Shown here piece after piece: positions 5,590-22,995 of a stretch of 64,000 nucleotides of DNA. Position numbers and translations under genes: made by a program. The DNA lies in the IMG/VR virus record IMGVR_UViG_3300005764_000015, positions 1 to 64,000 of that record; one strand, 5' to 3'. This DNA comes from an uncultured virus (IMG/VR IMGVR_UViG_3300005764_000015). Taxonomy: Duplodnaviria > Heunggongvirae > Uroviricota > Caudoviricetes. The notes under the pieces were generated by a model. That model saw only the letters and a list, made by a program, of their open reading frames with translations, was not told where the DNA came from and did no database searches. Numbering within the stretch: the first letter of the stretch is position 1; every line of letters begins with the position of its first letter.

Positions 5590-6090
5590 GTGACGATGAG
5601 AAAGATTCCAGATACACTAGCGGCACAGCAGGCTCGGTTTTCGAAGTTTGTTGATAAGAGTTCGTCGCCTAAGGGCTGTTGGCTTTGGACCGGATCTAAG
5701 GATCATTCTGGCCATGGTCACATAAAAATGAAGATGGCAGATGGCCATTTTGAATTTCAGGCTCATCGCATTGCACATATCTGGTGGATAGGACCTATTC
5801 CAGACGGTTTGTATGTTTGCCATAAACGCATTGATGTGTGCGGCAATGCAGCTTGCGCAAACCCTGCACATCTTTATATTGGAAACAGCTTTGATAACTT
5901 CGCTGATGCAGTAGCTGACGGGCGCCGGCGCCATAACGCTGCACTAACCGAACAGCAGATTGGGCTAATAAAAGCAATGTATACTGCCAACATTGTGCAT
6001 GGAGCTATTTCTGCTATAGCACGAAGGCTAAACCTCAGCAGAGCTACCGTTAGTGCTGTCATAACAGGCAGGATACGGAACCGTATATGA
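5590..6090 (+). CDS. HNH homing endonuclease with C-terminal HTH
   Basis: KFVDKSSSPKGCWLWTG, AHRIAH, VCHK...CANPAHL...DN; HTH AIARRLNLSRATVSAV. Confidence 0.9.
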   Translation: MTMRKIPDTLAAQQARFSKFVDKSSSPKGCWLWTGSKDHSGHGHIKMKMADGHFEFQAHRIAHIWWIGPIPDGLYVCHKRIDVCGNAACANPAHLYIGNSFDNFADAVADGRRRHNAALTEQQIGLIKAMYTANIVHGAISAIARRLNLSRATVSAVITGRIRNRI

Positions 6091-9000
6091 TTGAAATTTT
6101 GCGGCGAATGCATAACAGCTTTCGTGCCCGGTTACTCAAGCACTACCGGACGAAGGAAGTCGTGCGGGTGTTTCAGATATCCCACGCACAGGAACTGAAG
6201 GATTTGCCATATCATCAGTGGCCCGCCGTGCAGGCGCGGCAGACGCAGGAGATAGCAGCAGTGAAGGCCGGGCGCCTGGATATCGTAGATAGAAAATCCT
6301 GGGCATGGCCGTTCATCCCAGCTACGATCAACCGTCTGGCAACGCCGCTGATGAAAGCGACGCCTTACGCACTGCGGCGTATGTCTCGCACGCCTGTGCC
6401 GCGCAGAGCCATCAACCTGATTAAAAACGCTTTGATCGGGCAGGCCTGGGATGTGCAGCCGATAGATGGCGTAGCAGTACTTGACTCAGATAAGGAGCGG
6501 GATGCCCGCATACGGATCGCCAAGAAAATATTCACCCATCCGAATAATGAAGATAGCTTTCAGACGTGGATGGAGCAGGGGCTGGAGGACTTACTCATCT
6601 TCGGCTCATTCTCAACGGAGCTGTCACTTACGCCTGACCCGGAACGCCCGATAAAAATGTGGGCAGTGAATACAGAGAGCATTCGCATATTTCCCAACTG
6701 GGCAGAATCGCTGTCGCAGGACTATCCTCACTACGCGCAGATGACCGGATTAAAAGGCGAGCGCGGAGCCGTTTTGTTCTACGATGACGAATTAATGTAC
6801 GTGCGTGACAACATAGCCACGGATACACCATTCGGCACGGGCAAGATGGAAGTCGGATTTCGCTCGATCACAGATTTTCTGGGCGTGCAGGACATGAGCG
6901 GCAGAGCAGGCACGGATCAAGTCCACAAAACGTGGTTGTGGTGGGAGCAGCCACAATGTTTTGACGATCAAACGGAAGTGTTGACAACGCGGGGATGGGT
7001 GCCATGGTCTGGTACTTTAGATACCGATTGCTTTGCTACTCGTAGTGCTGATGGAAAGTTCGAGTGGCAGCAATGCACAGCTTTGCATAAGAAGCACTAC
7101 AAGGGCAATTTGGTCCAGTTTCAGAATCGTAATCTTCGCATACAAGTGACGCCGAATCATCGAATGTTTGGGCGTTACAAGTATTCGGGCAGACAGGATG
7201 GGAAGCATATCTATTATTTCGGTGACGAGCAGTTTGCGCAAGCGTGCGATGTGATTAGTACGGTTGCCAATAAACCTGGAAAGGGCAGTAAAATATCCGT
7301 TGGCTCAGATATAGCACGGATGACTACACGAAAGCCAAAATGTCACATTGATAGGCCAGATCCGAATTGCAAGCGATGTAGAAATCGCCTGGTCATGCGA
7401 AGGTACTATGATCGCATATATCAGGGCATAGCGCCTGGCCAGTCTAGCAAGAAAACCCCTGCCGACTTTGTTATTCCAGCTAGATCTAAGTGGGTAGACG
7501 GCGTGCTGCCGGCAGAAAAATTTACAGTAGGCAAATGGGAGTTTGATTGGCAAGATTGGGCAGCATTCCTTGGAATATGGATGGCTGAGGGTTCTACTAG
7601 CGGCAACATGCATGCAGCACGCTTAAAGAAAAAGCAAGGGGTAAAAGAGCCTGGTTATATAGCTGCGATAGCAGCATCAGCAGATGGAAATGCTTTCGCT
7701 CATCAGAAGAAGCATTGCACTGATATCCATACGTTTAAGGTAATCGTGGCTCAGAGCAGTAAGGCCAATTCAGAGAAGTATCAGGCTATTAAGTCCTTGA
7801 TGGACAAGATGAACTTGCCTTACTACACGCACGGCAATGCCTTTACTTTTACTTGCCGAGACATTTGGGAACATCTCGCACAGTTTGGAAATAAATATAC
7901 CAAGTGGGTGCCAGACTACATTAAGGACGCGCCTTCTGATGTTATCAGCACGTTTGTGCATTGGGCTTGTATAGGTGATGGCTGGCTTAGGGGAAATAAG
8001 GGTGCCAGAGGATACTTCACGACCAGTCGAAAACTAGCTGACGATCTGCAAGAACTATTTCAGAAGATAGGTAGCAGTGCCAGTATTGGTCGATCGAATG
8101 CGCATGTTGACAAGCATGGACGCTGCATATCACCTGGCTATTCCGTGATAGAACAGACGACTGAAGAGATCAGCTTAATGCCTAGCGCTTATAGGCCTGG
8201 TCGAGGGATGTGCAAGCCGCAGCTAGTGCCATATGATGGGATGGTGTACTGTGCGACAGTGCCAAATAGCACTCTATACTGTCGCCGAAATGGCTATGCA
8301 TTTTGGAGTGGGAATTCCGAGGCAGCCTATCAAATCGTGCGCAGGCATATCCAGAACGAGCTAGAAGGGCAGGCAAAGATATCGATCGTCGGCGGGATGA
8401 AGAAGCCAGAAGTCATCGAGGTGCAGCCGACGGTCGAATCCGACTTACTGTTGGGCTGGCAGGAAGTGCTGATCCGGATGATCGGCAACGCATTCGACTT
8501 ATCGGCGATGGCACTTGGCGTGGAACACGACGTGAACAGAGCAGTGGGTGAAGTGCTAGACGACCGTGACCACAGATCGGCCGTGGTCCCGATGGGCAAG
8601 CGCCTGGCAGAAGCACTTACGACGCGCGTCCTACACAACAAATTGCATTGGTACGATATCGAGTTCGTCTACCTGAATTTGGACGACCCGGATATGGTCA
8701 CCAAGCTCGACATGCTGACGCGGATGTACAGCGCCAATGCCGAGACGCCAAACGGAATCAGAATCGGCATGGGCAAGCAGCCGCTGGATAGCCCATTCGC
8801 AGACCTTACGCAGTTTGAATGCATGTTGCTCAACGTGCAGGCGCAGGTGTACGCCCAGGAAGAAGCCGCCAAGACTCAGCAGGAAATGCAGCCGCCAGCG
8901 CCGCCTGCAGGACCGGGCGGTCCCAGTGGTCCCGGGCAGGGGCCGGGGACGACGCCTGCGGTCAATGGACCGCCCCAAAAATCGATCCCACCGGGGCAGG

Positions 9001-9548
9001 CGCCGGGGAAAAAGGGCCTACCACCGGGGCAACAGCCGCCGACTACAGCACCCGGCGGTCCTGGCGGGCAGAAACCATTAAAGATAAAGCCCAAAGTTGC
9101 CTCGCCAACCAAGCTCAGCCTTCCGAAATTCCCTATCTCCGGCACTGCATATACCGCCATGGAACTCGCGGAAATGCCGGTGGATCAGCTTCGCAACCTG
9201 TTCGACCAGGAGCAGATGCCGCCGGTCAAAAATGTCATGCACGACATGGAAAATCAGGAGCCGGGCATCCTCGAACAGCTGTCGGAAGAAACGAAGGAAT
9301 TCTTCGAAGAGCGCAAGCAAAAGGAACAGGCGCAGCATCGCGTCAAGCCGATAGATCCGAAAATCATCAAGCAGTGGGCCAAGGAACAGCAGGACCGCCT
9401 GAAGGAGCACAGCAAGCGTACCGCGTCCTATTCGGAATTCGTTGAGAAACGCGGTCAGCAAGCCATGAAGCCCGGCGGCCCGGGATCAAAGGGCATAATC
9501 CCCAAGGCAGGCAAGCCGGGGCAGATTAATCCGATAGTCAAGCAATAG
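6087..9548 (+). CDS. Phage portal protein containing an intein, with a Pro/Gly-rich C-terminal extension
   Basis: Portal-like motifs (IFTHPNNEDSFQTW, DELMYVRDN...PFGTGKME, TPNGIRIGMGKQPL); position upstream of the head genes. Confidence 0.85.
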   Translation: MIEILRRMHNSFRARLLKHYRTKEVVRVFQISHAQELKDLPYHQWPAVQARQTQEIAAVKAGRLDIVDRKSWAWPFIPATINRLATPLMKATPYALRRMSRTPVPRRAINLIKNALIGQAWDVQPIDGVAVLDSDKERDARIRIAKKIFTHPNNEDSFQTWMEQGLEDLLIFGSFSTELSLTPDPERPIKMWAVNTESIRIFPNWAESLSQDYPHYAQMTGLKGERGAVLFYDDELMYVRDNIATDTPFGTGKMEVGFRSITDFLGVQDMSGRAGTDQVHKTWLWWEQPQCFDDQTEVLTTRGWVPWSGTLDTDCFATRSADGKFEWQQCTALHKKHYKGNLVQFQNRNLRIQVTPNHRMFGRYKYSGRQDGKHIYYFGDEQFAQACDVISTVANKPGKGSKISVGSDIARMTTRKPKCHIDRPDPNCKRCRNRLVMRRYYDRIYQGIAPGQSSKKTPADFVIPARSKWVDGVLPAEKFTVGKWEFDWQDWAAFLGIWMAEGSTSGNMHAARLKKKQGVKEPGYIAAIAASADGNAFAHQKKHCTDIHTFKVIVAQSSKANSEKYQAIKSLMDKMNLPYYTHGNAFTFTCRDIWEHLAQFGNKYTKWVPDYIKDAPSDVISTFVHWACIGDGWLRGNKGARGYFTTSRKLADDLQELFQKIGSSASIGRSNAHVDKHGRCISPGYSVIEQTTEEISLMPSAYRPGRGMCKPQLVPYDGMVYCATVPNSTLYCRRNGYAFWSGNSEAAYQIVRRHIQNELEGQAKISIVGGMKKPEVIEVQPTVESDLLLGWQEVLIRMIGNAFDLSAMALGVEHDVNRAVGEVLDDRDHRSAVVPMGKRLAEALTTRVLHNKLHWYDIEFVYLNLDDPDMVTKLDMLTRMYSANAETPNGIRIGMGKQPLDSPFADLTQFECMLLNVQAQVYAQEEAAKTQQEMQPPAPPAGPGGPSGPGQGPGTTPAVNGPPQKSIPPGQAPGKKGLPPGQQPPTTAPGGPGGQKPLKIKPKVASPTKLSLPKFPISGTAYTAMELAEMPVDQLRNLFDQEQMPPVKNVMHDMENQEPGILEQLSEETKEFFEERKQKEQAQHRVKPIDPKIIKQWAKEQQDRLKEHSKRTASYSEFVEKRGQQAMKPGGPGSKGIIPKAGKPGQINPIVKQ
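6957..8315 (+). mobile_element. Intein with LAGLIDADG homing endonuclease (453 aa)
   Basis: Q|CFDDQTEVLTTRGW N-junction, block B VTPNHRM, LAGLIDADG-like FLGIWMAEGS and ACIGDG, C-terminal VYCATVPN...WSGN|S; lower GC. Confidence 0.92.
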
Positions 9549-11405: not shown

Positions 11406-11646
11406 GCAGGGCGACGAAATGCTCAAGTCTGCTGAAGGCGAGCTTGAGAAGGGCGTGTTCCAATCCTACCAGGAAGTGCTGGAACATTTGTTCTACAAGT
11501 TTAATCGTGACGATCGCCCGAACGGGCAGACTGCTCATAGTTTATCTGTGGGCGACGTGGTTGTTCTAAACAATATGGTCTGCATGATGGGCTTTGCACA
11601 GATCGAGTTTAATCCAGTGGTTGTAAAGGAGCAGAATGAACGATAA
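11332..11646 (+). CDS. YodL-like domain protein (start uncertain)
   Basis: LEHLFYKFN...HSLSVGDVVVL. Confidence 0.55.
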   Translation: MTRCAARSRKDCQPPQLLGYENGYEQGDEMLKSAEGELEKGVFQSYQEVLEHLFYKFNRDDRPNGQTAHSLSVGDVVVLNNMVCMMGFAQIEFNPVVVKEQNER

Positions 11647-12013
11647 ACAGAAAGTCCCACTGAATGTCGGCTGGCTCAGCGAGAACGACTTGCTGACTAA
11701 GGCAGCTGGTATGTTGGGCTATGAATTGGGGCCAGCAAATGAGGAGTCGATCATCGTTACTGGTCACAAAGATGCCAAGCCCGCGGACTACCCGTCAGTT
11801 TATCCGTTCTACATGATGTGGGACGAAAACCTGATGTTTACTGTGGCACAGCTGCTTGAACTGGGCTTCGAGCCAGGAGAGTTTAAGTATTGTGAGTGCT
11901 GCAAAAAGCTCCAGGTTGATTGTGATCGTGATGTTGCAGAGTCAATGGATGTGCTGCGGGATCTGGGAGCGCTTGGCTACGATCAGATGCATCAGGATCT
12001 AAGCGACGATTAG
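11636..12013 (+). CDS. Hypothetical protein
   Basis: AAGGAG RBS; 125 aa. Confidence 0.65.
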   Translation: MNDKQKVPLNVGWLSENDLLTKAAGMLGYELGPANEESIIVTGHKDAKPADYPSVYPFYMMWDENLMFTVAQLLELGFEPGEFKYCECCKKLQVDCDRDVAESMDVLRDLGALGYDQMHQDLSDD

Positions 12014-12338: not shown

Positions 12339-12367
12339 GGCCCGGTGCAATGCCGGGCCTTTATTTT
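12339..12367 (+). terminator. Intrinsic terminator
   Basis: GGCCCGG/CCGGGCC stem followed by TTTATTTT. Confidence 0.8.
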
Positions 12368-12407
12368 GTCTGATGTTTGCTCGGATACGAGAGGAGTAAA
12401 TCCCGTT

Positions 12408-12441
12408 CGCCGTTGGCTGCTCCAGGGAACGTTAGTATCCT
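12408..12441 (+). promoter_or_regulatory. Putative late promoter (CGCCGTWGGC class)
   Basis: CGCCGTTGGC box; TTGGCT-17 nt-TATCCT; same box at 18680 and 35012. Confidence 0.5.
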
Positions 12442-12460
12442 CGCTCTAGGAGCACCAGCG

Positions 12461-13051
12461 GTGATTACAGCAAGTCCAGCTACCCTGCGCAGGCTAATTC
12501 TTCAACGCCCCGGCACGCTGCTGCAGCCCATTCAACCCAAACCATTACCCAACCTGCAGCGATTCAACCTGATGGGCGGTGGTCCCGGCTCCGGATGTCA
12601 TGGCGACCAGTGTGGGCGTCCTGCAGGCTCTGGATCGGAGCAGAGCCGTGCAGAGCGTGCTTCGGCAACATACAAGCCTTCGACCAGAGAAAAGCAGCGG
12701 ATAGCAGACGAGTCGGAACGTGATCTTAGCATAGCGTTGAAGATGGACCGCACGCCCGACAACGCAGCCTTCGATTTGAAGATTCCTGCAGCACCACCAG
12801 CAAAGGGCGTCGGTGTGGAAATCAAGACGTTCATCGACAACTCGAACAGCAAGATCACGATGCACAAGGAATCGCTGGCGCGGAAGGTCAAGGCTGCTAA
12901 GAAAGAAAAGCTAAACGCGCATACGGTGGTGGTCGATAAGAGAGAACCCGGCACAGAACGCTACTTCTATCGCAAGGGCGTCGGTTCGTTCTATCTCCGC
13001 ACCATGAAAGAAGTAAGCATCAAAGAATTGAGAGGGATACTAATCGCATGA
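12461..13051 (+). CDS. Tagged effector 1: PD-(D/E)xK-type nuclease
   Basis: AGGAG RBS then GTG at 12461; tag GGGPGSGCHGDQCGRP; NAAFDLK...GVEIKT catalytic-like motif. Confidence 0.65.
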   Translation: MITASPATLRRLILQRPGTLLQPIQPKPLPNLQRFNLMGGGPGSGCHGDQCGRPAGSGSEQSRAERASATYKPSTREKQRIADESERDLSIALKMDRTPDNAAFDLKIPAAPPAKGVGVEIKTFIDNSNSKITMHKESLARKVKAAKKEKLNAHTVVVDKREPGTERYFYRKGVGSFYLRTMKEVSIKELRGILIA

Positions 13052-13326
13052 GCTACGAAGTAATCGGCGACAGCAAGCCGCTGGGACAGTTTGCCAGCAA
13101 CAAGGGCTACACGGACCTGATAGACGCTGCAGATGCCGCAGCAGACAAGTATCCCGCACTGCAGGGGCTGTTCGATACGGGCAGGTCAAAGAATGTAGCC
13201 AAAGTCATCACGGAACTGAACACACTTGCGGCAACGGCTTCTAAAGATGTAGCTTCGACAGCAAGGACGCTGGTTTCACTCATTGCAGGGAAAAAGAAAA
13301 TTGTCATATCGGATGGTGTCTCATGA
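13048..13326 (+). CDS. Small protein coupled to effector 1 (candidate immunity/partner)
   Basis: ATGA overlaps on both sides; 92 aa. Confidence 0.6.
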   Translation: MSYEVIGDSKPLGQFASNKGYTDLIDAADAAADKYPALQGLFDTGRSKNVAKVITELNTLAATASKDVASTARTLVSLIAGKKKIVISDGVS

Positions 13327-14735
13327 AGCTATTCCTACCGCCTCCAGCAATGCCACCCGACTTAGCGAGCAGCATATTGCTCAGAATGCGTGTCCGCTAC
13401 ATCAACGCCGGAGGACCTGGATCGGGCTGTCACGGTCCTAACTGCGGCAGACCGCCGGGGCCTGGAAAAGATGCCCCGATGGGTGACGCGCCCGGCAGCA
13501 CCGGGTTCTTACTCAAAGATCGCGGCTGGACAGAAACCGGCAAGCAGGACCTGAAAGGCAAGACAGCCCGCGTGTATGAGCACCCGATCCACGGGAAGTT
13601 AGTGGTTTCAAATAACTGGTACGAGCATTACGACAAGGGTGGCACGAAAGTCGGCGAGAAGACAGATCTGGTGAAGGGTACACCGCTGTCGGAAAAGCTG
13701 GCAAAATACATGGATGACAAGGGTGGCATGTCGGGCAAGATAACTCCGCCTACCAAGCCTACGCCTCCGCCACCGACAATCACCAAGCCTGCGCCCGTGA
13801 AACCGCCACCGCCACCGCCAGAAAAGAAAGCCAAGCCAGAGCCGCCCGCGCCAGCCGTGGTCAAGCCCGGCACTTACGAAAAAGGCGCCGAAGAATTCCA
13901 CGCTGCCACGCTCAAGCTACTAGATACGCCAGGGCTGGACACCGCCAAGCAAGCTATCGAAAAAGCGCAGGCAAACTACGAAGCTGCTACCAAAGAGTAC
14001 AGCGCATTTACGAAGACGCTTTATGGAAACGAAGGCGCCTGGGATAAGCCGGAAAACAAAGCCAAGCTGAGCGAGCTGTACAATAAGCAGGATGAAGCCA
14101 ACGATGCGCTTCACGAAGCGAAGGCCGCACAAGAGGCAGCCAAGACAGCAGTGAGGGACAAGTTCAATACGCTTTTGCGCGGTGGAGCTCCTGCAGCCAA
14201 GATCGGAACAAAAGCTTACGGAGCATTCGGTATCGGCAATCTAGCGTCTAAGTCAGCAGCAGCATTGGGGCAGATGCTACCGCAGAAATTCGTAAATTAC
14301 GCCAAGGTGGATACCTGCAATTTCAAGCAGAAGGGCGGCAGGAGGGCTTACTACAGCGAGGAAGGATTCCCCGGCGGAGCGGTGTTCATCAATCCCGGCA
14401 GCGGCAACGTCCAGACTGGAGTTCACGAGATGGGGCACTGGCTGGAATACAAAGTGCCCGGCTTACAGAAAGAAGCAACGGATTTTCTCAATCGCCGAAC
14501 AGCGGGAGAATTCGCACAAAAGCTGAAGAAGCTCACCGGCAAGAATTACAAGTCCAGCGAGGTAGCCAAGCCGGACAAGTTCACTAACCCGTACATTGGC
14601 AAGATCTACCCGCATGGGGCTACAGAAATCATCTCGATGGGCATGGAACAGCTGTACCACAACCCGGCGGGATTCGCCAAGGATGACCCGGACTACTTCA
14701 AGTTCATGTACAGTGTTATTCATAAAAAGAGGTAG
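13323..14735 (+). CDS. Tagged effector 2: zincin metallopeptidase
   Basis: INA-GGPGSGCHGPNCGRP tag; Pro-rich linker; coiled coil; VHEMGHWLE and downstream EIISMGME. Confidence 0.8.
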   Translation: MKLFLPPPAMPPDLASSILLRMRVRYINAGGPGSGCHGPNCGRPPGPGKDAPMGDAPGSTGFLLKDRGWTETGKQDLKGKTARVYEHPIHGKLVVSNNWYEHYDKGGTKVGEKTDLVKGTPLSEKLAKYMDDKGGMSGKITPPTKPTPPPPTITKPAPVKPPPPPPEKKAKPEPPAPAVVKPGTYEKGAEEFHAATLKLLDTPGLDTAKQAIEKAQANYEAATKEYSAFTKTLYGNEGAWDKPENKAKLSELYNKQDEANDALHEAKAAQEAAKTAVRDKFNTLLRGGAPAAKIGTKAYGAFGIGNLASKSAAALGQMLPQKFVNYAKVDTCNFKQKGGRRAYYSEEGFPGGAVFINPGSGNVQTGVHEMGHWLEYKVPGLQKEATDFLNRRTAGEFAQKLKKLTGKNYKSSEVAKPDKFTNPYIGKIYPHGATEIISMGMEQLYHNPAGFAKDDPDYFKFMYSVIHKKR

Positions 14736-14737
14736 AT

Positions 14738-14989
14738 ATGCCGACGACGATTCTTATCAACGGTGCACGGGCAACGGTCGACAACGATGGTAAGTGGACT
14801 CTGGGCAAGAGCCTACCGCCGCAGATGGGCAAGATACTGCAGCAAATAACGAAGCATGCCCTGGCCGAACTTAGCCCGGCAGATGGCGAGCCGAGCCACG
14901 AGATTGCCAGTAAAGCCGTCAAGGCGCTTGGCGGAAAAATCATCGAGAGCACCATCGTCGACGATGCGCCGCCGGATGCAGTGCTATGA
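14738..14989 (+). CDS. Small protein coupled to effector 2 (candidate immunity/partner)
   Basis: GAGG RBS; 83 aa. Confidence 0.6.
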   Translation: MPTTILINGARATVDNDGKWTLGKSLPPQMGKILQQITKHALAELSPADGEPSHEIASKAVKALGGKIIESTIVDDAPPDAVL

Positions 14990-16092
14990 TAGAAAAAATC
15001 ACGATCCACTTTGATACCGATTTCCAAGCAGCAACGGATGCGGTGGCCCCAGATGACCTCAGCGACAGTGAGTACTACACCGTTACACCAGAGCAGGCAG
15101 AAGAGCGCAGAAAATATTTGACGTCGGAAGGCCCAATAGAAACGCTGGAAAGCATGCTTGCCATGCTAGACGCGGAAGCAGCACTTGATGCAGTAGAAAG
15201 TGGCGAGGCAGATGTCAACCTAAGTGCAGCAGAAGAAATGTTCAATCGCATAGATGCTGGCGGGCCTGGCAGCGGCTGTCACGGTGATAACTGTGGTCGC
15301 CCGGCAGGTGCAGGCGGAGAGGGCATATCCAAGGCTTACGCAGATAATTTGTCGAAGGCCAAAGCGCTGCTGGAAAAATATGCAGCAGACAAAGAGCCTG
15401 AATATCAGGGCCACGTGAAGCTGCCGAATAAAACCATGTACAACAAAGATCGAACGAACAGGTGGATGCAGAGGCTGGAAGAAGGCCAGCCTCGAGAAGA
15501 AGCAGCAAAAGGGCTGGGGCTGTATGTCGAGCTAGCCAACTCGATGGGTCTGGGACCGAAGCACTTACAAGCCGTGGCCAAGTACATGGATGACTGGACG
15601 AATGAGTCGGATGCGGGCGGCGGAAAATACGTGCAGGAAAAAGGCCAGGAAATCGTCGACGGCCATTGCTGCTCGGATGCGCGTGCCAAGGCCATGATGG
15701 TGGAATATCTGATTACGCAGGCAAAGCTCGAGAAGAAATATCCAAGTGGAATGATTCCCGTGCTATATCGCGGCGTGTACGGCGACCATGCAGCAGGCTT
15801 GAAAGACCAGGCTTCAATGGCGCGCACTAAAGAGGTCAGCATTCGGACCAGAGGTGCAGAAAGCTTTTCGGCGAGTTACGAAAAGGCAAAAGACTTTGCT
15901 GATAGCCACGAACATGGCGTGGTCATCGAAGAACACAACGTGCCGATCACGCATGTAATTTCGTCGTTCGACACGTCGCCGGGATACTTTGCTGGCCTGG
16001 CAGATGAGCGGGAGTATGTACTGTCTCATCCGGGTGCGGGCATGAAAGTGCCCAAGCAGCATATCAAAGACGTGTCGATGTACGGAGATTAG
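14986..16092 (+). CDS. Tagged effector 3: ADP-ribosyltransferase (R-S-E type)
   Basis: Acidic N-terminal segment; IDA-GGPGSGCHGDNCGRP; LYRGV, ESFSAS, EREYV. Confidence 0.75.
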   Translation: MIEKITIHFDTDFQAATDAVAPDDLSDSEYYTVTPEQAEERRKYLTSEGPIETLESMLAMLDAEAALDAVESGEADVNLSAAEEMFNRIDAGGPGSGCHGDNCGRPAGAGGEGISKAYADNLSKAKALLEKYAADKEPEYQGHVKLPNKTMYNKDRTNRWMQRLEEGQPREEAAKGLGLYVELANSMGLGPKHLQAVAKYMDDWTNESDAGGGKYVQEKGQEIVDGHCCSDARAKAMMVEYLITQAKLEKKYPSGMIPVLYRGVYGDHAAGLKDQASMARTKEVSIRTRGAESFSASYEKAKDFADSHEHGVVIEEHNVPITHVISSFDTSPGYFAGLADEREYVLSHPGAGMKVPKQHIKDVSMYGD

Positions 16093-16093
16093 C

Positions 16094-16222
16094 ATGGCTG
16101 ACGAAGAAGAAAAAGAATTCGACATAGACTTGTCCGACGATCCCAACAGCAAGTGGATGCACCAGATGCGCGAGAAAAAGAAGGAGTACGAGCCAGAGCC
16201 GGATCCACTGGAGGACGAATGA
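16094..16222 (+). CDS. 42-aa acidic peptide after the ART (not in the ORF track)
   Basis: GGAG RBS; MADEEEKEFDIDLSDDPNSKWMHQMREKKKEYEPEPDPLEDE; stop overlaps the next ATG. Confidence 0.6.
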   Translation: MADEEEKEFDIDLSDDPNSKWMHQMREKKKEYEPEPDPLEDE

Positions 16223-18639
16223 GCTACGTCGACGAGATAGAAAATAATCTCTCTGACTTAGAAGAGTTCCTTGCCCGAATCGAGGCCGGCGGACCCGGCA
16301 GCGGTTGCCATGGACCGAACTGCGGGCGCCCGCCCGGTTCGGGCAAGGGAGGCACGGCACTGCACGATGCTCCAGAAGGCGCGCCAGGCGTCGGCACGAC
16401 CGGCACGCTAATGAAGGACTTCGGCTGGAAGAAAGTGCCCGGTGGGGAAACTACCGTCAAAGGCCATCCGGCAACGATGTACACGCATCCAACGCATGGC
16501 ACGATGTTCGTGACCAAGAATTGGTACGAGCATTACAAGGCGGGCGAGAAAATCGGAGAAAAGACGGAGCTGGCCAAAGGCAAGCCACTCGCAGAGAAGC
16601 TGAAGACGTATCTGAAGGAGAACACGCCCCGGCCTGGTTCTGGTCCGGTAGCGCCCGCGCCGACGAAGCCTGCAGGCCCCAAACCGACCGGAACTACTAC
16701 TCCACAGCCGAAGCCTATCCCTGCCACAGCCGCTCAGATCCCCAACCGGGACGCAGAGTTCAAGTTCAAGGAAGACGCGGGCCATCTGGGCGGCGCCCAT
16801 GACAAATATCTCTACACCGACAAGCTCGGAAAAGAATATCTGTTCAAGCCAGCAACAACGCTGAGCGGGGATGTCTCGCCGTTGATGGCACACGCCGATG
16901 AAATGGCATCGCGGATAGCGCAGAAGCTGAGGCCCTACGCATTCGAACACGCCAGAGCAGCAGAGCTTACCGTGCCCGGCCAGGGCAAGGTGGTCGGCAG
17001 CGTGCACGAGATGCTGCCGAACATCATGCAGAACAAAGACTTCAGCGGTGTAAAGCCGAAGGACTTAAAGCCAGAAGACTCGGCACAGCTGCAACGTGAG
17101 CAGGTAATCGACTGGCTGATCAGCAACCACGACTCGCATGGCGGCCAGTTCATCCGCAGCGAAGGCGGAAAAGTAATCGGCATCGACAAGACGCAGGCAT
17201 TCAAGTACTTTGGCAAAGATAAGCTGGATGTTGATTACCATCCGAATGCAAGCTACGGCGAGAAGCCGCCTTACTACAATGACATGTGGAAGGCGGTGAA
17301 AAAGGGTGATCTGACAGTCGACCCGATGCAGTCGTACAAGACGATTCAGAAGGCACAGGCAATCCCTGATGATGAGTATCGCAACATACTCATGCCTTAT
17401 GCCAAAGAAAGATTCAAGAACGACGACAAAGCCGCGAACGAATTCCTTGACAAAGCCGTTGGCAGGAAAAACGCTCTAAAGGCAGACTTCGAGAAATTCA
17501 TCGGTGGTGTGTACGGCAAGCCGTTCACGTTCAATAATGGCTTTTCCGGCACTGGGAATCCTATTCCAAAACCCGCGGGCGCCGGACCGAAGCCACCGTT
17601 GCAGCCGGGAGATAAAGGCAGGCCAGCGCCGGTAGAGGAGCAGAAGCAGCGCCTGGCGGAGATGATACAAAAGCCTTCGGAAAAAGGCCAGGGCACGGCC
17701 GGCCACGTCATTGCCTGGGAACCGTATGTACCGCCAGATAATCCGCAGTTCAAATCGCGGATGGCTGAGGCACATCAAGTGGTGGCAGATGTGATGAGCA
17801 AGTACAGCGGCCCGAGCCAAAAATATCTGCATAATTTTGACGATGACAAGCGCTGGGAATGGGAAGCTAAAATCAACAGCGGAAAATCTCCCGTAGATGC
17901 AGCAAAGGGCCTGGGCGTCTATCCAGAGGCATTTGCTAAGATGGGATTTTCGCCGGGAGAGATGCATGACATGATCGGCACCATCAAGGGCTGGACGGGC
18001 AGCTCGTCGGGAACGAATGGTACTAAGGTGCAGGAAGCAGCGCAGCAGATTATTAACGGCAAGTGCTGTAGCTCAAAGGTGGCTCGTGCCTTCGAGTTGG
18101 AGTACGCCTTAACGCAGGCAAAATTAGCCAAGCAAGTAGATTCGGCAGGTAAGCTCAAGATTCCGGTGTGGCGGGGCGTGAATGATACTGACGAGCCAGG
18201 TTACGCCAACCAATTAGAGGCAGCTGCAGCCAAGCATGACTTCGTAGAAACGGTCAACCGCGGTGCTGAGAGTTACTCGACCAGCTTGGATAAAGCTAAG
18301 CAATTCGGTCGAGTCATCCTACAGATACACAACGTGCCCGCCAAGCAAGTGCTTACTTCAGCACTTACTAATCCCGCAGCATTTACAGCTCACCATCACG
18401 AAGCGGAAATGGTGGTTGCTCACAAGGGCAATCAGAAGCTGCTTGCGAAAGATGTGATCATCAAGCATTCGGGACCGTACACGGCGCTGCTAAAGTCGGA
18501 GGCAGAGAAAGAAAAAGGATCGTTGGTGCTAGATCTGACGGATGATGTGAACGCAGATTGGTATGCAATAGCTGCCAGACGTATGCATCTGCCACCAAAT
18601 GAGGATTATAAGATCTTCGTTATGGAAGCTGTAGAGTAA
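16219..18639 (+). CDS. Tagged effector 4: PI3/4-kinase/HipA-like kinase fused to an ADP-ribosyltransferase
   Basis: GGAGG RBS, ATG at 16219; IEA-GGPGSGCHGPNCGRP; LGGAHDK, YLFKP, DWLISNHDSHGGQF, IGIDK; then VWRGV, ESYSTS, EAEMV. Confidence 0.8.
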   Translation: MSYVDEIENNLSDLEEFLARIEAGGPGSGCHGPNCGRPPGSGKGGTALHDAPEGAPGVGTTGTLMKDFGWKKVPGGETTVKGHPATMYTHPTHGTMFVTKNWYEHYKAGEKIGEKTELAKGKPLAEKLKTYLKENTPRPGSGPVAPAPTKPAGPKPTGTTTPQPKPIPATAAQIPNRDAEFKFKEDAGHLGGAHDKYLYTDKLGKEYLFKPATTLSGDVSPLMAHADEMASRIAQKLRPYAFEHARAAELTVPGQGKVVGSVHEMLPNIMQNKDFSGVKPKDLKPEDSAQLQREQVIDWLISNHDSHGGQFIRSEGGKVIGIDKTQAFKYFGKDKLDVDYHPNASYGEKPPYYNDMWKAVKKGDLTVDPMQSYKTIQKAQAIPDDEYRNILMPYAKERFKNDDKAANEFLDKAVGRKNALKADFEKFIGGVYGKPFTFNNGFSGTGNPIPKPAGAGPKPPLQPGDKGRPAPVEEQKQRLAEMIQKPSEKGQGTAGHVIAWEPYVPPDNPQFKSRMAEAHQVVADVMSKYSGPSQKYLHNFDDDKRWEWEAKINSGKSPVDAAKGLGVYPEAFAKMGFSPGEMHDMIGTIKGWTGSSSGTNGTKVQEAAQQIINGKCCSSKVARAFELEYALTQAKLAKQVDSAGKLKIPVWRGVNDTDEPGYANQLEAAAAKHDFVETVNRGAESYSTSLDKAKQFGRVILQIHNVPAKQVLTSALTNPAAFTAHHHEAEMVVAHKGNQKLLAKDVIIKHSGPYTALLKSEAEKEKGSLVLDLTDDVNADWYAIAARRMHLPPNEDYKIFVMEAVE

Positions 18640-18728: not shown

Positions 18729-20165
18729 ATGGCACAGAGACTGGAACTAATCCAAGGATCGGTTAGCATAACCGCACAGGAGACTCATCCCAACAAGATG
18801 AAATTCCGCGGAGTGCTGGTCCGTTTGGATGAGCCGTCAACCCGGCCGCCGAACGGAGCCGAAGGGCACCGAATCTACGTTCCGACAGCGGTTGCAGCCA
18901 AGCGGTTGCAGACTCTGGTCGGCATGGGATTAAATTACGCTGAGAACTTAGATGGCCATCAGCAGAGAAGAAAAGTCGGAGTTATCCAGAAGGCAAATAT
19001 CGAGGGCAAGGATCTGTGGGTTGAGGGAATTGTTTGGAAGCATGACTTTCCCGAAGCCACGGATGACTTGAAGCAGAAGAACCTGGGCATGTCGATGGAG
19101 ATCGGGCAGGTAGCGGTCGACGACATCAACGCAGATGTGTGGGTGCTGAACGACTTCTATTTCCTGGGCGCCACGATTCTGTTCCGTGATGCAGCAGCCT
19201 ATGAACGTACGCAAGCAATTGCTGCGCAGGCAAACAAAGGGAGCGCAAACATGAAGAAACCGACGGTAACAAAGCCAGCAGCCGTACAGCGGATGGACGC
19301 TGGCGCCATTGCACAAATCGCCACGCAGGCTGCTGTGGAAGGCGTGTCCAAGCATTTCGCGGGCACGTTCAACCGGCAGACCAACCTGCTGGCAAGGATG
19401 GCCGCACAGTTCGAAGACGTGAACTCGCGGCTTACCGCCCTAGAAGCCGGGGCTGTCACGGATGACGAGGACGACGACGAAATCGACGACATCGACGCAG
19501 AAGGCAACGTCGCACCTCCGCCTGCGGCAACAGCAGTTCCGAAAATGACGACAAAGAAAAAAGTCGCCGCAGCCGATGACGAGGACGATGAGGACGATGA
19601 GGACAAGAAGGCGGACGAGGACGACGACGAGGAAATCGAATCCGAAGCCATCGACAAGGGCGATCTTGAAGAGATGGGTCCGGACACTGCCGGTGGGGAC
19701 CTCGGCACGCCGGCGCATCAGAACGAAGACGACGAAAACAAAGGGAGCAGAACGACCTTGAACGACGACGTCGGAAAGACCGTAGCTTCGGCGGCTTTGA
19801 AGTCGCTTCGCAAGCAGGTGGCCAAGCTGACAGCAGGGCACGTGCAGCTGCAGCAGGAAAACAAGCGGCTGAAAAAGCAGCTGGCTGCCACGCATCGCCA
19901 AGTTACCGCAGCAGCCAACGATGTCACCCGGCGCTCGCGGCCAATCCACAATGACGTGCAGGGTCTGCTGGCAAAGAGCGGCCTGGATCCGATGAACATG
20001 CAGGCCTCGTCCCAGAAGCTTTCGGTCGCCGAAGTGGACGCACTGATCGCCTCGTCGCTTCCGAATGTGGACGTCACCACGCGGATGACGCTCAAGAACA
20101 AGATGCTCGAAATGGGGCTGATGGAAGAAGGGGCAGTCCACCGGCAGTTGATTCCACGGGGCTAA
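18729..20165 (+). CDS. Prohead protease fused to an acidic/coiled-coil scaffold
   Basis: N-terminal DGH...KVGVI...LWVEG...LGMSME; Asp/Glu tracts; coiled coil; immediately upstream of the capsid gene; internal GGAG+ATG at 19251. Confidence 0.8.
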   Translation: MAQRLELIQGSVSITAQETHPNKMKFRGVLVRLDEPSTRPPNGAEGHRIYVPTAVAAKRLQTLVGMGLNYAENLDGHQQRRKVGVIQKANIEGKDLWVEGIVWKHDFPEATDDLKQKNLGMSMEIGQVAVDDINADVWVLNDFYFLGATILFRDAAAYERTQAIAAQANKGSANMKKPTVTKPAAVQRMDAGAIAQIATQAAVEGVSKHFAGTFNRQTNLLARMAAQFEDVNSRLTALEAGAVTDDEDDDEIDDIDAEGNVAPPPAATAVPKMTTKKKVAAADDEDDEDDEDKKADEDDDEEIESEAIDKGDLEEMGPDTAGGDLGTPAHQNEDDENKGSRTTLNDDVGKTVASAALKSLRKQVAKLTAGHVQLQQENKRLKKQLAATHRQVTAAANDVTRRSRPIHNDVQGLLAKSGLDPMNMQASSQKLSVAEVDALIASSLPNVDVTTRMTLKNKMLEMGLMEEGAVHRQLIPRG

Positions 20166-20201
20166 GTGCCCGGAAAGAAAAAGAAGAGGGAGACGCAGAC
20201 A

Positions 20202-21182
20202 ATGGCAGAAAAAAGACCAGCAGTCTTTCAGGACTTCACAGCAGCAGCGGACTACCTCGGACCGGGCGCTATTGAAGTCAACCGTTACCAAACGGAAATC
20301 GTGGACATGGTGCGGAGACGGTTCGTGCTCGGCCAGCGGATCAATCAAACGCCGGCCACCGGGCAGCCGTCGCGTTACTTCGAGCAGCTGGCCATCCCGA
20401 CGGCCAACTTCGTCGATCCGCGTGCACTGTCCGCCACGCCGTCGCAGCCGCAGCGCCAGGAAAGAGTCCTGATGCTGAAGGCAATCACGGCTCAAATCAA
20501 CTACGGGATTTTCGACGTCGAGGTGAACCAGCAGCAGGGCCAGTTCGCGTACCTCGAAGCGAAGGATCTCACGGACACCGTTGACGGGTGTCTGAAGGTG
20601 CATGACCAGGGCCTGTGGAACGGCAACGACACGGACCTGATCGTCAGCACGACGGCGCAGTATTACGGCGTCAGCGGCCAGCTGGTCGCAGGCGCCGGCA
20701 CTCCAATCGGCAACCCGATCATCAACGTGGGCGCCGCGCCAGCCAGCCTGGTCGACGCAGTGAAGACCGGCATGGCAGCAATGGCAGCCAGGACGGACTT
20801 CGAAGTGCGGCCGTCGGCCTTCTACTCGAACCCGCTTTTCCTCGACCTGTTCGACAAGGAAGCCAAATCGCTGCAGCTCTACTACAATCAGGTGGAAATC
20901 CTGCCGGGCGTGGTGGTCGAGGGCATCCCAACGCAGCTCGGCATCCTGCCCCTGATCGGCGACCCGGCGGTGACGGTGTTCGGGACCACGACGAAGACTT
21001 ACACCGGCTTCATCGTGTCGGAAGACATGATCGAATATCACTATCTGACCGACCCGCTGCCCAGAGTTTTCCAGCTGGGCTTGCTGGCAAATTTGGCCGC
21101 GCAGTATGTGGTGGTCAAGTTCGGCGCGCCGGTAGCCAAAGGTGCCGGTTACGCACATCAGGTAATTCAGACGGTTCGTTAA
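20202..21182 (+). CDS. Major capsid protein
   Basis: 326 aa after the scaffold; strongly biased codons; GLWNG...YYGV; followed by a terminator. Confidence 0.82.
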   Translation: MAEKRPAVFQDFTAAADYLGPGAIEVNRYQTEIVDMVRRRFVLGQRINQTPATGQPSRYFEQLAIPTANFVDPRALSATPSQPQRQERVLMLKAITAQINYGIFDVEVNQQQGQFAYLEAKDLTDTVDGCLKVHDQGLWNGNDTDLIVSTTAQYYGVSGQLVAGAGTPIGNPIINVGAAPASLVDAVKTGMAAMAARTDFEVRPSAFYSNPLFLDLFDKEAKSLQLYYNQVEILPGVVVEGIPTQLGILPLIGDPAVTVFGTTTKTYTGFIVSEDMIEYHYLTDPLPRVFQLGLLANLAAQYVVVKFGAPVAKGAGYAHQVIQTVR

Positions 21183-22169: not shown

Positions 22170-22613
22170 ATGCGACTGGATGAAATGCTTTTGCTGAGTA
22201 AGTCAGCTACAATTCAGGCTGGCAGTGCAAAGAACGATGGCGAGATTTTCCGCGAGATGCACGACACACTGCAACAGCACGGCTTCCAGCAGGAAAGCAA
22301 GGACGACCACCACGCCGACTACCGGCACCAGAACGGAGACTTAGTCAAGCTGCGGCATTCGACGAGCAAGATGTACCCCGAATCCAAGGCGGCTGGTAAT
22401 TTTACTCTCAAGCCGCAGATGGCTTACGACAAGCGCGGCATCCCTGTGGATCGTCCTGGCGTGTCAACAAAGGGCAAGTCGTTCCGCCAGCTGCACGAGG
22501 ATTCGGATGCTGAAGGCAGCGGGCATGAAGCGTTGAAGAGCACGCTGGAGCAGTTTGGTCACAAGCCGGCCTACGGGCCGCCAGAAAAGGCAGGAAAAAA
22601 TGCGACTAAGTGA
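22170..22613 (+). CDS. His-rich putative internal head protein
   Basis: MRLDEMLL...IQA-G; LQQHGF...YRHQNGDLV domain. Confidence 0.6.
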   Translation: MRLDEMLLLSKSATIQAGSAKNDGEIFREMHDTLQQHGFQQESKDDHHADYRHQNGDLVKLRHSTSKMYPESKAAGNFTLKPQMAYDKRGIPVDRPGVSTKGKSFRQLHEDSDAEGSGHEALKSTLEQFGHKPAYGPPEKAGKNATK

Positions 22614-22995
22614 TGCAGTAGCAATGCGGAATATGGGCACCTTCGGCCGAACTATCATGGCAGGTGGCCCGGGCAGCGGTCGCCATCCCGGTGGCGGAAG
22701 CCAGGAAGACCAGGCAAAGGCGGATGGAGGGAAGCTTCACTCTGCCCTGTCGGAGCATGGCTTTAAGTACTCTAGCACCGAACACGACGACCCGAGCGGA
22801 GTTGATGAGCACACATACTCGCATCCGAATGGCGAGAGCGTGAGCTTTGCCAGCTATGGCGGCGGCCCGTCGAAAGGCGGCAACACCGAATGGGAGCACA
22901 AAGACTCCAGCGGTGACAGAATCCGCAGAGGTGAAGGTGCCAAGTCGTTCGGTCAGCACATGGAACGCCATTACGGCGTAAATAAAATGAAATGA
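22600..22995 (+). CDS. Putative internal head protein with variant tag
   Basis: MRLSDAV...IMA-GGPGSGRHP; LSEHGF...YSHPNGESV...WEH. Confidence 0.65.
   Translation: MRLSDAVAMRNMGTFGRTIMAGGPGSGRHPGGGSQEDQAKADGGKLHSALSEHGFKYSSTEHDDPSGVDEHTYSHPNGESVSFASYGGGPSKGGNTEWEHKDSSGDRIRRGEGAKSFGQHMERHYGVNKMK

Follow-up and report, generated by a model that had tools for sequence, protein, structure and literature searches.

Why would a phage carry the same short acidic segment, DL(S/T)DDxNxxW, both as a separate gene behind one ADP-ribosyltransferase (ART) domain and as the fused tail of another? The question is raised by the head module of an uncultured phage, IMG/VR virus record IMGVR_UViG_3300005764_000015 (78 kb), whose initial 64 kb (64,000 nucleotides) form the stretch analysed here, referred to below as the window; the genes are on its + strand. 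Four cargo genes, E1 to E4, are located between the portal gene and the putative protease/scaffold and major capsid genes, and the last two of them, E3 (14986-16092, 368 amino acids (aa)) and E4 (16219-18639, 806 aa), contain paralogous ART domains. E4 has the segment in its C-terminal tail, and E3 is followed by a 42-aa open reading frame (ORF), g42, that contains it. Probably, though with considerable room for doubt, g42 arose by gene fission from a polyvalent virion protein that has become unbundled, and it retains the role of an accessory tail of the ART.

Homology of the segments behind the two ART domains

The 42-aa ORF (16094..16222, + strand) reads MADEEEKEFDIDLSDDPNSKWMHQMREKKKEYEPEPDPLEDE, and the E4 tail carries LVLDLTDDVNADW at 18523-18561, both as an earlier sequence-only reading of the window had placed them. 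In an ungapped comparison they share 8 identities in the 20 residues that end at the Trp, around DL(S/T)DDxNxxW. This divergence is about equal to that of the E3 and E4 ART domains, which are themselves 37% identical (E 5.9e-34).

The motif is short, and chance resemblance of two acidic stretches has to be considered. The six-frame translation of the 64 kb contains three sites that match D[LIVM][ST]D[DE], all on the + strand (11996, 16127 and 18532), where 0.29 are expected from composition and within-peptide shuffles give a mean of 0.41; three or more occurrences were seen in 6/300 shuffles, and one of the three sites (11996) does look random. Homologues from outside the window allow a stricter comparison. 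Representative proteins (1.84e9) were searched exhaustively by phmmer with the E4 ART domain plus tail (E <= 0.001), which gave 34 matches, made up of the E4 and E3 of the window, the non-ART protein P0037, which was matched in the tail only and left out, and 31 ART homologues of 174-2,847 aa. A profile hidden Markov model (HMM) of ten type I tails (described below) of these non-window homologues was compared with every stop-to-stop peptide of the window, 1,701 in number with 105,166 residues. It ranked the g42 frame highest (E 3.4e-4, 16.8 bits) and the E4 tail next (E 0.11, 9.0 bits), with all others at E 1.7 or worse, and a 23-tail profile ranked them in the same way (g42 E 0.061, E4 tail E 0.56). 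Since a profile built from independent homologues picks exactly these two among 1,701 peptides, their match is homology and not chance. Both segments also directly follow paralogous ART domains, and the tail is kept in most homologues, so that a chance resemblance is hardly credible. The sequence-only reading, that one element stands as its own gene behind one ART and is fused to the other, is thus borne out by the alignment and the tail HMM.

The reverse search gives a similar picture. With phmmer, g42 was compared with a library of 32 proteins (the 31 ART homologues and P0037), and it matches post-ART tails in P0028 (residues 165-188, E 5e-5), P0032 (371-394, E 1.5e-4), P0022, P0035, P0030, P0027 and P0020; one match, in P0031, is located upstream of the ART instead of at the tail. 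The conserved core of g42 (16118..16183, + strand), FDIDLSDDPNSKWMHQMREKKK, is delimited by its alignment with the ten type I tails, by the HMM match and by the read-through model described below, and is predicted to form a strand and two helices, of which the first is short and the second begins at the W and has a basic run.

The third DLSDD site (11996..12010, + strand) is at the extreme C-terminus of a 125-aa ORF (11636-12013). It was considered as a third copy of the tail and rejected, since neither tail profile matches this ORF and the Trp five residues past its stop belongs to the start region of the following gene, which overlaps the ORF. Between this site and the effector cluster stands a terminator-like hairpin (12339-12359), and the site is probably an unrelated, chance occurrence. 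A copy of the 125-aa protein with 124/125 identities comes from a different source within the protein collection. Two small genes, g83 and g88, were also rejected as tail-like, having no significant match to the homologues or the tail profiles, and the tail profiles did not match the non-ART effectors E1 and E2 or their neighbours among the window peptides. P0037, a repeat protein of 352 aa, has five copies of NLDLDSTDDFDGDWFSIA, which resembles LDLTDDVNADWYAIA of the E4 tail (E 3.7e-4) either by chance or as a shared short motif.

A conserved C-terminal extension of the ART domain

A MAFFT alignment places a conserved tail 10-45 residues past the last ART strand in 23 of the 31 homologues. 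The expectation that the motif would be kept near ART homologues, which the sequence-only reading had made one of its tests, is thereby confirmed, and the alignment shows the DL(S/T)DDxNxxW segment to be the core of a conserved C-terminal extension of the R-S-E ART domain in this clade. The extension consists of a short beta-strand (hhhD-L/G-T/S), a turn or helix, and a helix that has an invariant Trp as its first residue and also carries basic ones. Ten of the tails are of type I, with the consensus KKhhhhD-h-(T/S)-D-xx-(D/N)-x-(N/D)-W-L-H-xx-R-K, and 13 are of type II, in which hhVDGTxQSH..PPxW is followed by PxEVIxhxh at the true C-terminus. With g42 included, 9 of 11 type I tails have a basic residue five residues after the Trp (R in six, K in three).

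The tail is missing in P0008, P0011, P0014, P0015, P0016, P0017 and P0021, and P0009 ends in a stub (…NVLWLN). Its absence from these seven homologues means that it is not part of the core fold and speaks for an accessory or regulatory role. Contigs encoding tail-less homologues were looked for and not found (P0011, P0017 and P0014 in viral contigs, P0014 and a profile in metagenome contigs, and the same profile and P0021 in genome contigs).

The element that follows the tail varies. An AGGPGSG module comes next in P0022, P0032 and P0034, and in P0009 the internal ART is succeeded by EAGGQGSG. In P0020, P0027 and P0030 an InPase domain follows, and elsewhere the tail is at the end of the protein. 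The remaining AGGPGSG boundaries in the same giant proteins have no tail in front of them. Because the tail accompanies the ART whatever element comes next, it is ART-specific and, as judged from these sequences, belongs to the ART rather than being a generic linker.

g42 as a probable gene

The start codon of g42 lies one base beyond the TAG stop of E3 (16090-16092), and a Shine-Dalgarno (SD)-like GGAG (16084..16087, + strand) is located 6 nt upstream of its ATG. The TGA stop (16220-22) overlaps the E4 start as ATGA, and E4 has a GGAGG (16210-14, + strand) 4 nt before its ATG at 16219. Codon-usage log-odds are +6.8 bits in the g42 frame versus -17.9 and -29.0 in the other + frames, where real genes score 12.3 +/- 6.1 and off-frames -24.2 +/- 12.1 per 126 nt. 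The predicted peptide is acidic, with 17 D/E in 42 residues. From the sequence we infer that g42 is translated.

The exact g42 protein has been called on three contigs (JGI, Logan and ENA). A 151-nt contig from X4 (16037-16187) spans the E3/g42 junction and a 451-nt contig from X5 (16122-16572) spans the g42/E4 junction, each with 0 differences; X4 and X5 are other coded soil samples and studies, and a further run, X3, may be the sample from which the window derives. The split is therefore not an assembly error, and it is reproduced in soil runs other than that of the window.

The intervening ORF could also be a non-functional linker, left over from one polyvalent gene that joined E3 and E4 and either untranslated or translated without consequence. 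It is very short and acidic and unique to this phage in the searches made, and seven of 31 homologues work without the tail, which would fit such a leftover. However, g42 fits the family tail profile better than the fused E4 tail does (16.8 versus 9.0 bits), its core is conserved against E4 in the way that the ART domains are (8/20 identities versus 37%), and it has an intact start and stop, an SD site, ATGA coupling and gene-like codon usage. We consider a leftover unlikely.

E3 and E4 are in one frame and g42 is in the +1 frame, and the E3 frame has two stops, at 16090 and 16099, so that simple read-through from E3 is excluded. A programmed +1 frameshift at GAT-TAG-C would fuse E3 and the tail into one protein; the tail frame is indeed +1 relative to E3 and open from 16046, GGAG is just upstream of the E3 stop, and the read-through product is predicted to fold like E4. 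Yet the GAT before the stop cannot re-pair in the +1 frame (ATT), and a slippery sequence is lacking. In the prfB frameshift, an SD-like site is located a few bases upstream of the shift codon. Here the GGAG overlaps the GAT codon, and its spacing of 6 nt is ideal for initiation at the ATG at 16094. Frameshifting at this junction is very improbable. Within g42, G-AAA-AAG at 16174-16180 resembles A-AAA-AAG, which we take to be the dnaX -1 slippery site; as read from the sequence, a -1 shift there would lead into the E4 frame, which is open from 16102.

The two ART domains and the predicted structure of the tail

E3 (14986..16092, + strand) has an N-terminal segment with AGGPGSGCHGDNCGRP, followed by an R-S-E ART domain (about 15382-16089, + strand) that ends 12 residues past the last core strand, without a tail. 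E4 (16219..18639, + strand) has AGGPGSGCHGPNCGRP, a small domain in common with E2, a kinase-like middle domain, an R-S-E ART domain (17782..18465, + strand, model residues 1-228) and the tail (18466..18636, + strand). The E4 tail comprises a flexible linker, the strand LVLD, the helices DVNA and WYAIAARRM (18523-18585 for the strand and helices), and a terminal YKIFVMEAV, and it makes E4 about 57 residues longer past the ART core, versus the 12 residues of E3.

The ART domain of E4 matches the Pfam family DRAT (PF07357) with 32.9 bits, above the cut-off of 25 bits, and that of E3 with 18.2 bits, below it. The catalytic motifs are VWRG, ESYSTS and EAE in E4, and LYRG, ESFSAS and ERE in E3. The catalytic Arg and both Glu of the ExE motif (R262, E341 and E343 in E3 numbering) are invariant across the 33 aligned sequences. 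An AlphaFold2 (AF2) model of the E4 ART plus tail, made with a 33-sequence alignment, has a mean predicted local distance difference test score (pLDDT) of 87.4. All its top matches in the VIA comparison are R-S-E ARTs, with Z-scores from 6.5 to 5.0 for Vis, HopU1, C3, ART2.2 and Certhrax (Vis 6.5, HopU1 6.2 and C3 6.0, with 153-156 aligned residues each), and all Z-scores are below 8. With this model, Foldseek found no PDB entry at E <= 0.001, the E-values being 0.017 or higher.

In the E4 model, the linker (residues 233-240) has pLDDT < 50 and is followed by the strand LVLD (248-251) and the helices DVNA and WYAIAARRM. The pLDDT is 71/86/71 over residues 241-270 and < 50 in the last 14 residues. 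Most alignments of solved ARTs to the model (VIA) stop near residue 234, so the tail appears to be an addition to the canonical ART fold. Since DSSP needs backbone pairing to assign a strand or bridge, the tail is modelled as attached to the ART domain. E3 read through into g42, with an X at the break and an alignment of the same 31 homologues plus E4, is predicted by AF2 to form a bridge at I-D and the helices DPNS and WMHQMREKKKE, with pLDDT 71-80. We infer that g42 is an accessory or regulatory element that docks in trans on the E3 ART, as the E4 tail docks in cis on its own.

E4 as a whole has at least three regions, namely the E2-like small domain, a middle domain in common with mycobacteriophage capsid/ART fusions, and the ART. 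The middle domain (16780-17560, residues 188-448) matches 12 mycobacteriophage records with 32-37% identity, and five of these 12 are annotated as 'minor capsid and ADP-ribosyltransferase fusion protein'. From the motifs SNHDSHGGQF and GIDKTQAF it looks kinase-like, and it has no Pfam match. A GTG at 16153 was considered as the E4 start and rejected; it has no SD site, whereas the ATG at 16219 has one, and it is contradicted by the library copy P0004, which has 806 aa and is matched by the query at residues 522-806.

A probable unbundled polyvalent protein

The homologues are modular. The 13 that were scanned carry InPase, NUDIX, topoisomerase IB, GNAT and a second ART, and the E4 architecture recurs in a consensus made from the long homologues. 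Segments of E1, E2 and E4 match internal parts of polyvalent homologues. The order of ART, tail and AGGPGSG module in the single chains is collinear with that of E3, g42 and E4. The peptide has the internal-junction form of the tail (WMHQMREKKK), and E4, the last module, has the extra strand-like YKIFVMEAV that is typical of C-terminal tails.

The AGGPGSG motif marks module boundaries in the giant homologues, with up to seven per protein. In the window it occurs in five head-module proteins on the + strand (12578-12594, 13410-13426, 15259-15275, 16288-16304 and 22663-22679) as (I/L)-x-AGGPGSG followed by C/R and H. E1 to E4 each carry AGGPGSGCHGxxCGRP near the N-terminus, and the ORF at 22555-22995 carries MAGGPGSGRHPGGG. 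The GGPGSG coding pattern is found six times in the window versus 0.04 expected. Since the motif is kept even in modules that are separate genes, it may be a packaging or cleavage signal, and its retention points to a functional signal rather than a passive linker. A full-text literature search for the AGGPGSG string gave only unrelated uses among the matches listed.

The small genes between E1 and E4 have 92, 83 and 42 codons. As the sequence-only reading had described, a small gene follows each of E1, E2 and E3, and behind E4 the next gene, the putative protease/scaffold gene, begins after a gap of 90 nt. That reading had taken the pattern to mean that every effector except E4 has a downstream partner gene, and this argument is weakened by the 92-aa gene between E1 and E2 (13048-13326). 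It matches over its full length to residues 1-92 of the 1,059-aa P0030 (40% identity, E 6e-18), with the same MSYE start and the same VISDG ending. As the neighbour of E1 is the N-terminal module of a polyvalent protein, the small genes look like detached modules and not like immunity genes. As E1, E2 and E3 each encode one effector, the whole cluster appears to be an unbundled variant of a polyvalent protein.

In the explanation that we favour, this soil phage would have a head module with four virion-cargo genes that are equivalent to the modules of its relatives' single giant polyvalent proteins. E4 would retain the extension fused and in its terminal form. The E3 gene would have been split, so that its extension is made separately as a 42-residue peptide from a translationally coupled micro-gene between E3 and E4. 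This peptide, a detached post-ART tail, would correspond to the internal-junction form that in relatives is directly ahead of the next AGGPGSG module.

Several observations weigh against g42 being a working tail produced by fission. A free-standing tail peptide was not found elsewhere among proteins of 23-74 aa, which is a weak test for a profile of about 40 residues, and a 12-tail profile found none beyond this phage among 247 candidates of 16-90 aa; the power of this search is low because the profile has only 40 residues and the E-values are scaled to 5.8e9 proteins. The fold of E3 read through into g42 indicates compatibility and not binding, since E3 and g42 are joined by an artificial covalent link and cis tails are part of the alignment. 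The tail is not required for the ART fold, being absent from seven of 31 homologues, and X4 and X5 possibly derive from one sampling campaign. Apart from these points, a homologous-protein search with the E4 ART plus tail in the range of 156-499 aa had no match, and an ESM Atlas search with the 42-aa peptide had no usable match.

A possible role of the tail in ART inhibition

The tail may do more than accompany the ART. The sequence-only reading had proposed an ART-inhibitory peptide that acts in cis in E4, with possible removal by proteolysis in the head, and in trans for E3. Such an inhibitor would silence the packaged toxin in the producing cell; proteolysis or ejection would remove or displace it in E4, and g42 would serve E3 as a micro-antitoxin. 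In favour of this, the tail is conserved and specific to the ART, and it appears accessory rather than structural, since it lies outside the canonical ART fold and is missing from seven of 31 homologues. The flexible linker, with pLDDT < 50, could be cut. The ExE motif goes with arginine-specific ARTs, and the basic residue five positions after the Trp in 9 of 11 type I tails, beside ExE ARTs, makes a pseudosubstrate conceivable. In pierisin-1 and the mosquitocidal toxin, linkers block the active site. Among the fold matches of the E4 model, the 'autoinhibitory form' of pierisin-1 (5h6n) is a weak one at Z 3.2, and the mosquitocidal holotoxin (2vsa) has Z 3.1, both over the ART core only. In the retrieved portion of their paper, Iyer, Burroughs, Anand, de Souza and Aravind (2017; PMC5512222) propose that polyvalent proteins may be inactive before processing.

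However, none of the results locates the tail at or close to the active site. Cleavage of the linker cannot remove an inhibitor that acts in trans, so that release would have to work differently for the two forms. Unlike true toxin-immunity pairs, the trans form turned up nowhere outside this phage in the searches made; among the relatives, the element is within the enzyme chain in 23 of 31, and a separate inhibitor gene kept beside the ART was not found. The 92-aa 'partner' gene is a polyvalent-protein module and not an immunity protein. Inhibition of the ART by the tail is thus a possible function, and a rather doubtful one.

A more specific form of the proposal is that the tail is a built-in pseudosubstrate or cap, anchored by its strand and presenting the basic residue after the Trp, that silences virion ARTs until ejection or processing, with g42 as a free micro-antitoxin for one ART. 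We put this forward tentatively and think it unlikely. If it were true, g42 would be the smallest ART inhibitor known, and the locus would provide a natural cis/trans pair for dissecting how phages protect themselves from the toxins that they inject. If the tail is merely structural, the locus illustrates gene fission neatly but has little to offer beyond that; the interest would be higher if the tail gates ART activity.

Genomic context and occurrence

The cluster is flanked upstream by the portal gene (6087-9548, + strand; Phage_portal, E 6.6e-19) and downstream by the protease/scaffold and major capsid genes (18729-21182), whose identity was read from the gene list and which received no family name from the family searches. 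The portal gene encodes 1,153 aa, and the Phage_portal match is confined to residues 744-892. Residues 1-750 have a weak LAGLIDADG_3 match and odd PHROG matches (thymidylate synthase, PhoH-like), and it seems likely that the gene holds an intein or another insertion. The other two cargo genes, E1 (ORF 12377-13051, + strand) and E2 (13323-14735, + strand), precede E3, and E2 contains HEMGH. The E1 ORF opens at a TTG at 12377, and another candidate start is the ATG at 12572, immediately before GGGPGSG. The hairpin at 12339-12359 is strong (nine pairs, seven of them G-C, with a T-run) and is located between an 88-aa gene and E1, which suggests that the effector cluster is the start of a new transcription unit.

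The window sequence is present in soil-metagenome runs. A 117-kb IMG/VR contig also contains it (12,855 bases at 100% identity) and is not independent. This contig, with the window's own sequence, was the sole match when viral contigs were scanned with the E4 ART. A nucleotide search of 50,697 phage records found no relative of the window, and tblastn with the E4 ART plus tail found no match in the phage collection, where only the E4 middle domain was matched, in mycobacteriophages.

Comparison with known systems

The locus offers a conserved accessory element, previously undescribed, that belongs to a metagenomic clade of R-S-E ARTs, and a natural experiment within one phage, where one paralogue has the element fused to it and the other has it as a free-standing peptide. 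It also suggests that unbundling of polyvalent proteins can proceed one gene at a time, with each piece keeping the AGGPGSG boundary motif. Both aspects bear on how injected phage effectors are tamed during assembly and on how giant polyvalent proteins are divided into working units.

The phage polyvalent proteins described by Iyer et al. (PMC5512222) are the closest parallel, as far as the retrieved portion of that paper goes. They are virion-associated multi-effector proteins encoded among head genes; E1 to E4 are located between the portal gene and the putative protease/scaffold and capsid genes and may be packaged. The homologues found here join ART, InPase, NUDIX, GNAT, topoisomerase IB and kinase-like domains in chains of 700-2,800 aa, and a metallopeptidase-type module (HEMGH in E2) is found alongside. 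Unlike in those proteins, the modules of this phage are separate, translationally coupled genes, down to a 42-aa piece, and the ART is of the R-S-E (DRAT-like) type. The same portion of the paper reports H-Y-D ARTs in polyvalent proteins and states that ARTs of the Alt/VIP2 family (the R-S-E-2 clade) are absent from genuine polyvalent proteins. The R-S-E ART homologues found here are an exception to this statement as it stands there, and they extend polyvalent proteins to R-S-E ARTs. The post-ART tail and the AGGPGSG boundary motif were not met in that portion.

T4 Alt, as covered in the same portion of PMC5512222, is also an R-S-E ART that is encoded with late or structural genes and is presumably packaged and ejected to modify host proteins. 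The ARTs described here differ from Alt in the N-terminal targeting region, and the search of the phage collection gave no sequence match. We know of no detached tail peptide for T4 Alt.

Pierisin-1, the mosquitocidal toxin and ExoS/ExoT have a short segment after the last ART strand, on a flexible linker, that controls activity. In ExoS and ExoT, this C-terminal tail is of the LDLA type and is bound by 14-3-3 proteins, which to our knowledge bacteria do not have. The L-D-L core of the tail described here is like the motif of the ExoS tail, whereas there is no sequence homology to the tails of any of these toxins. Pierisin-1 (5h6n), the mosquitocidal toxin (2vsa) and ExoS/ExoT (6gnk, 6gn0) are among the fold matches, which are weak (Z 3.1-4.3) and cover the ART core only.

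The pairs of ART toxin and immunity protein, Tre1-Tri1 (6drh), TreX-TriX (8s2m) and the Listeria ART-ARH (8za7), are also among the fold matches, and they resemble E3 and g42 in having an R-S-E ART with a small separate neighbour. Their immunity proteins are folded domains that are conserved as separate genes, whereas g42 has 42 aa, is homologous to a segment that the enzyme family carries in cis, and is unique to this phage as a separate gene in the searches made.

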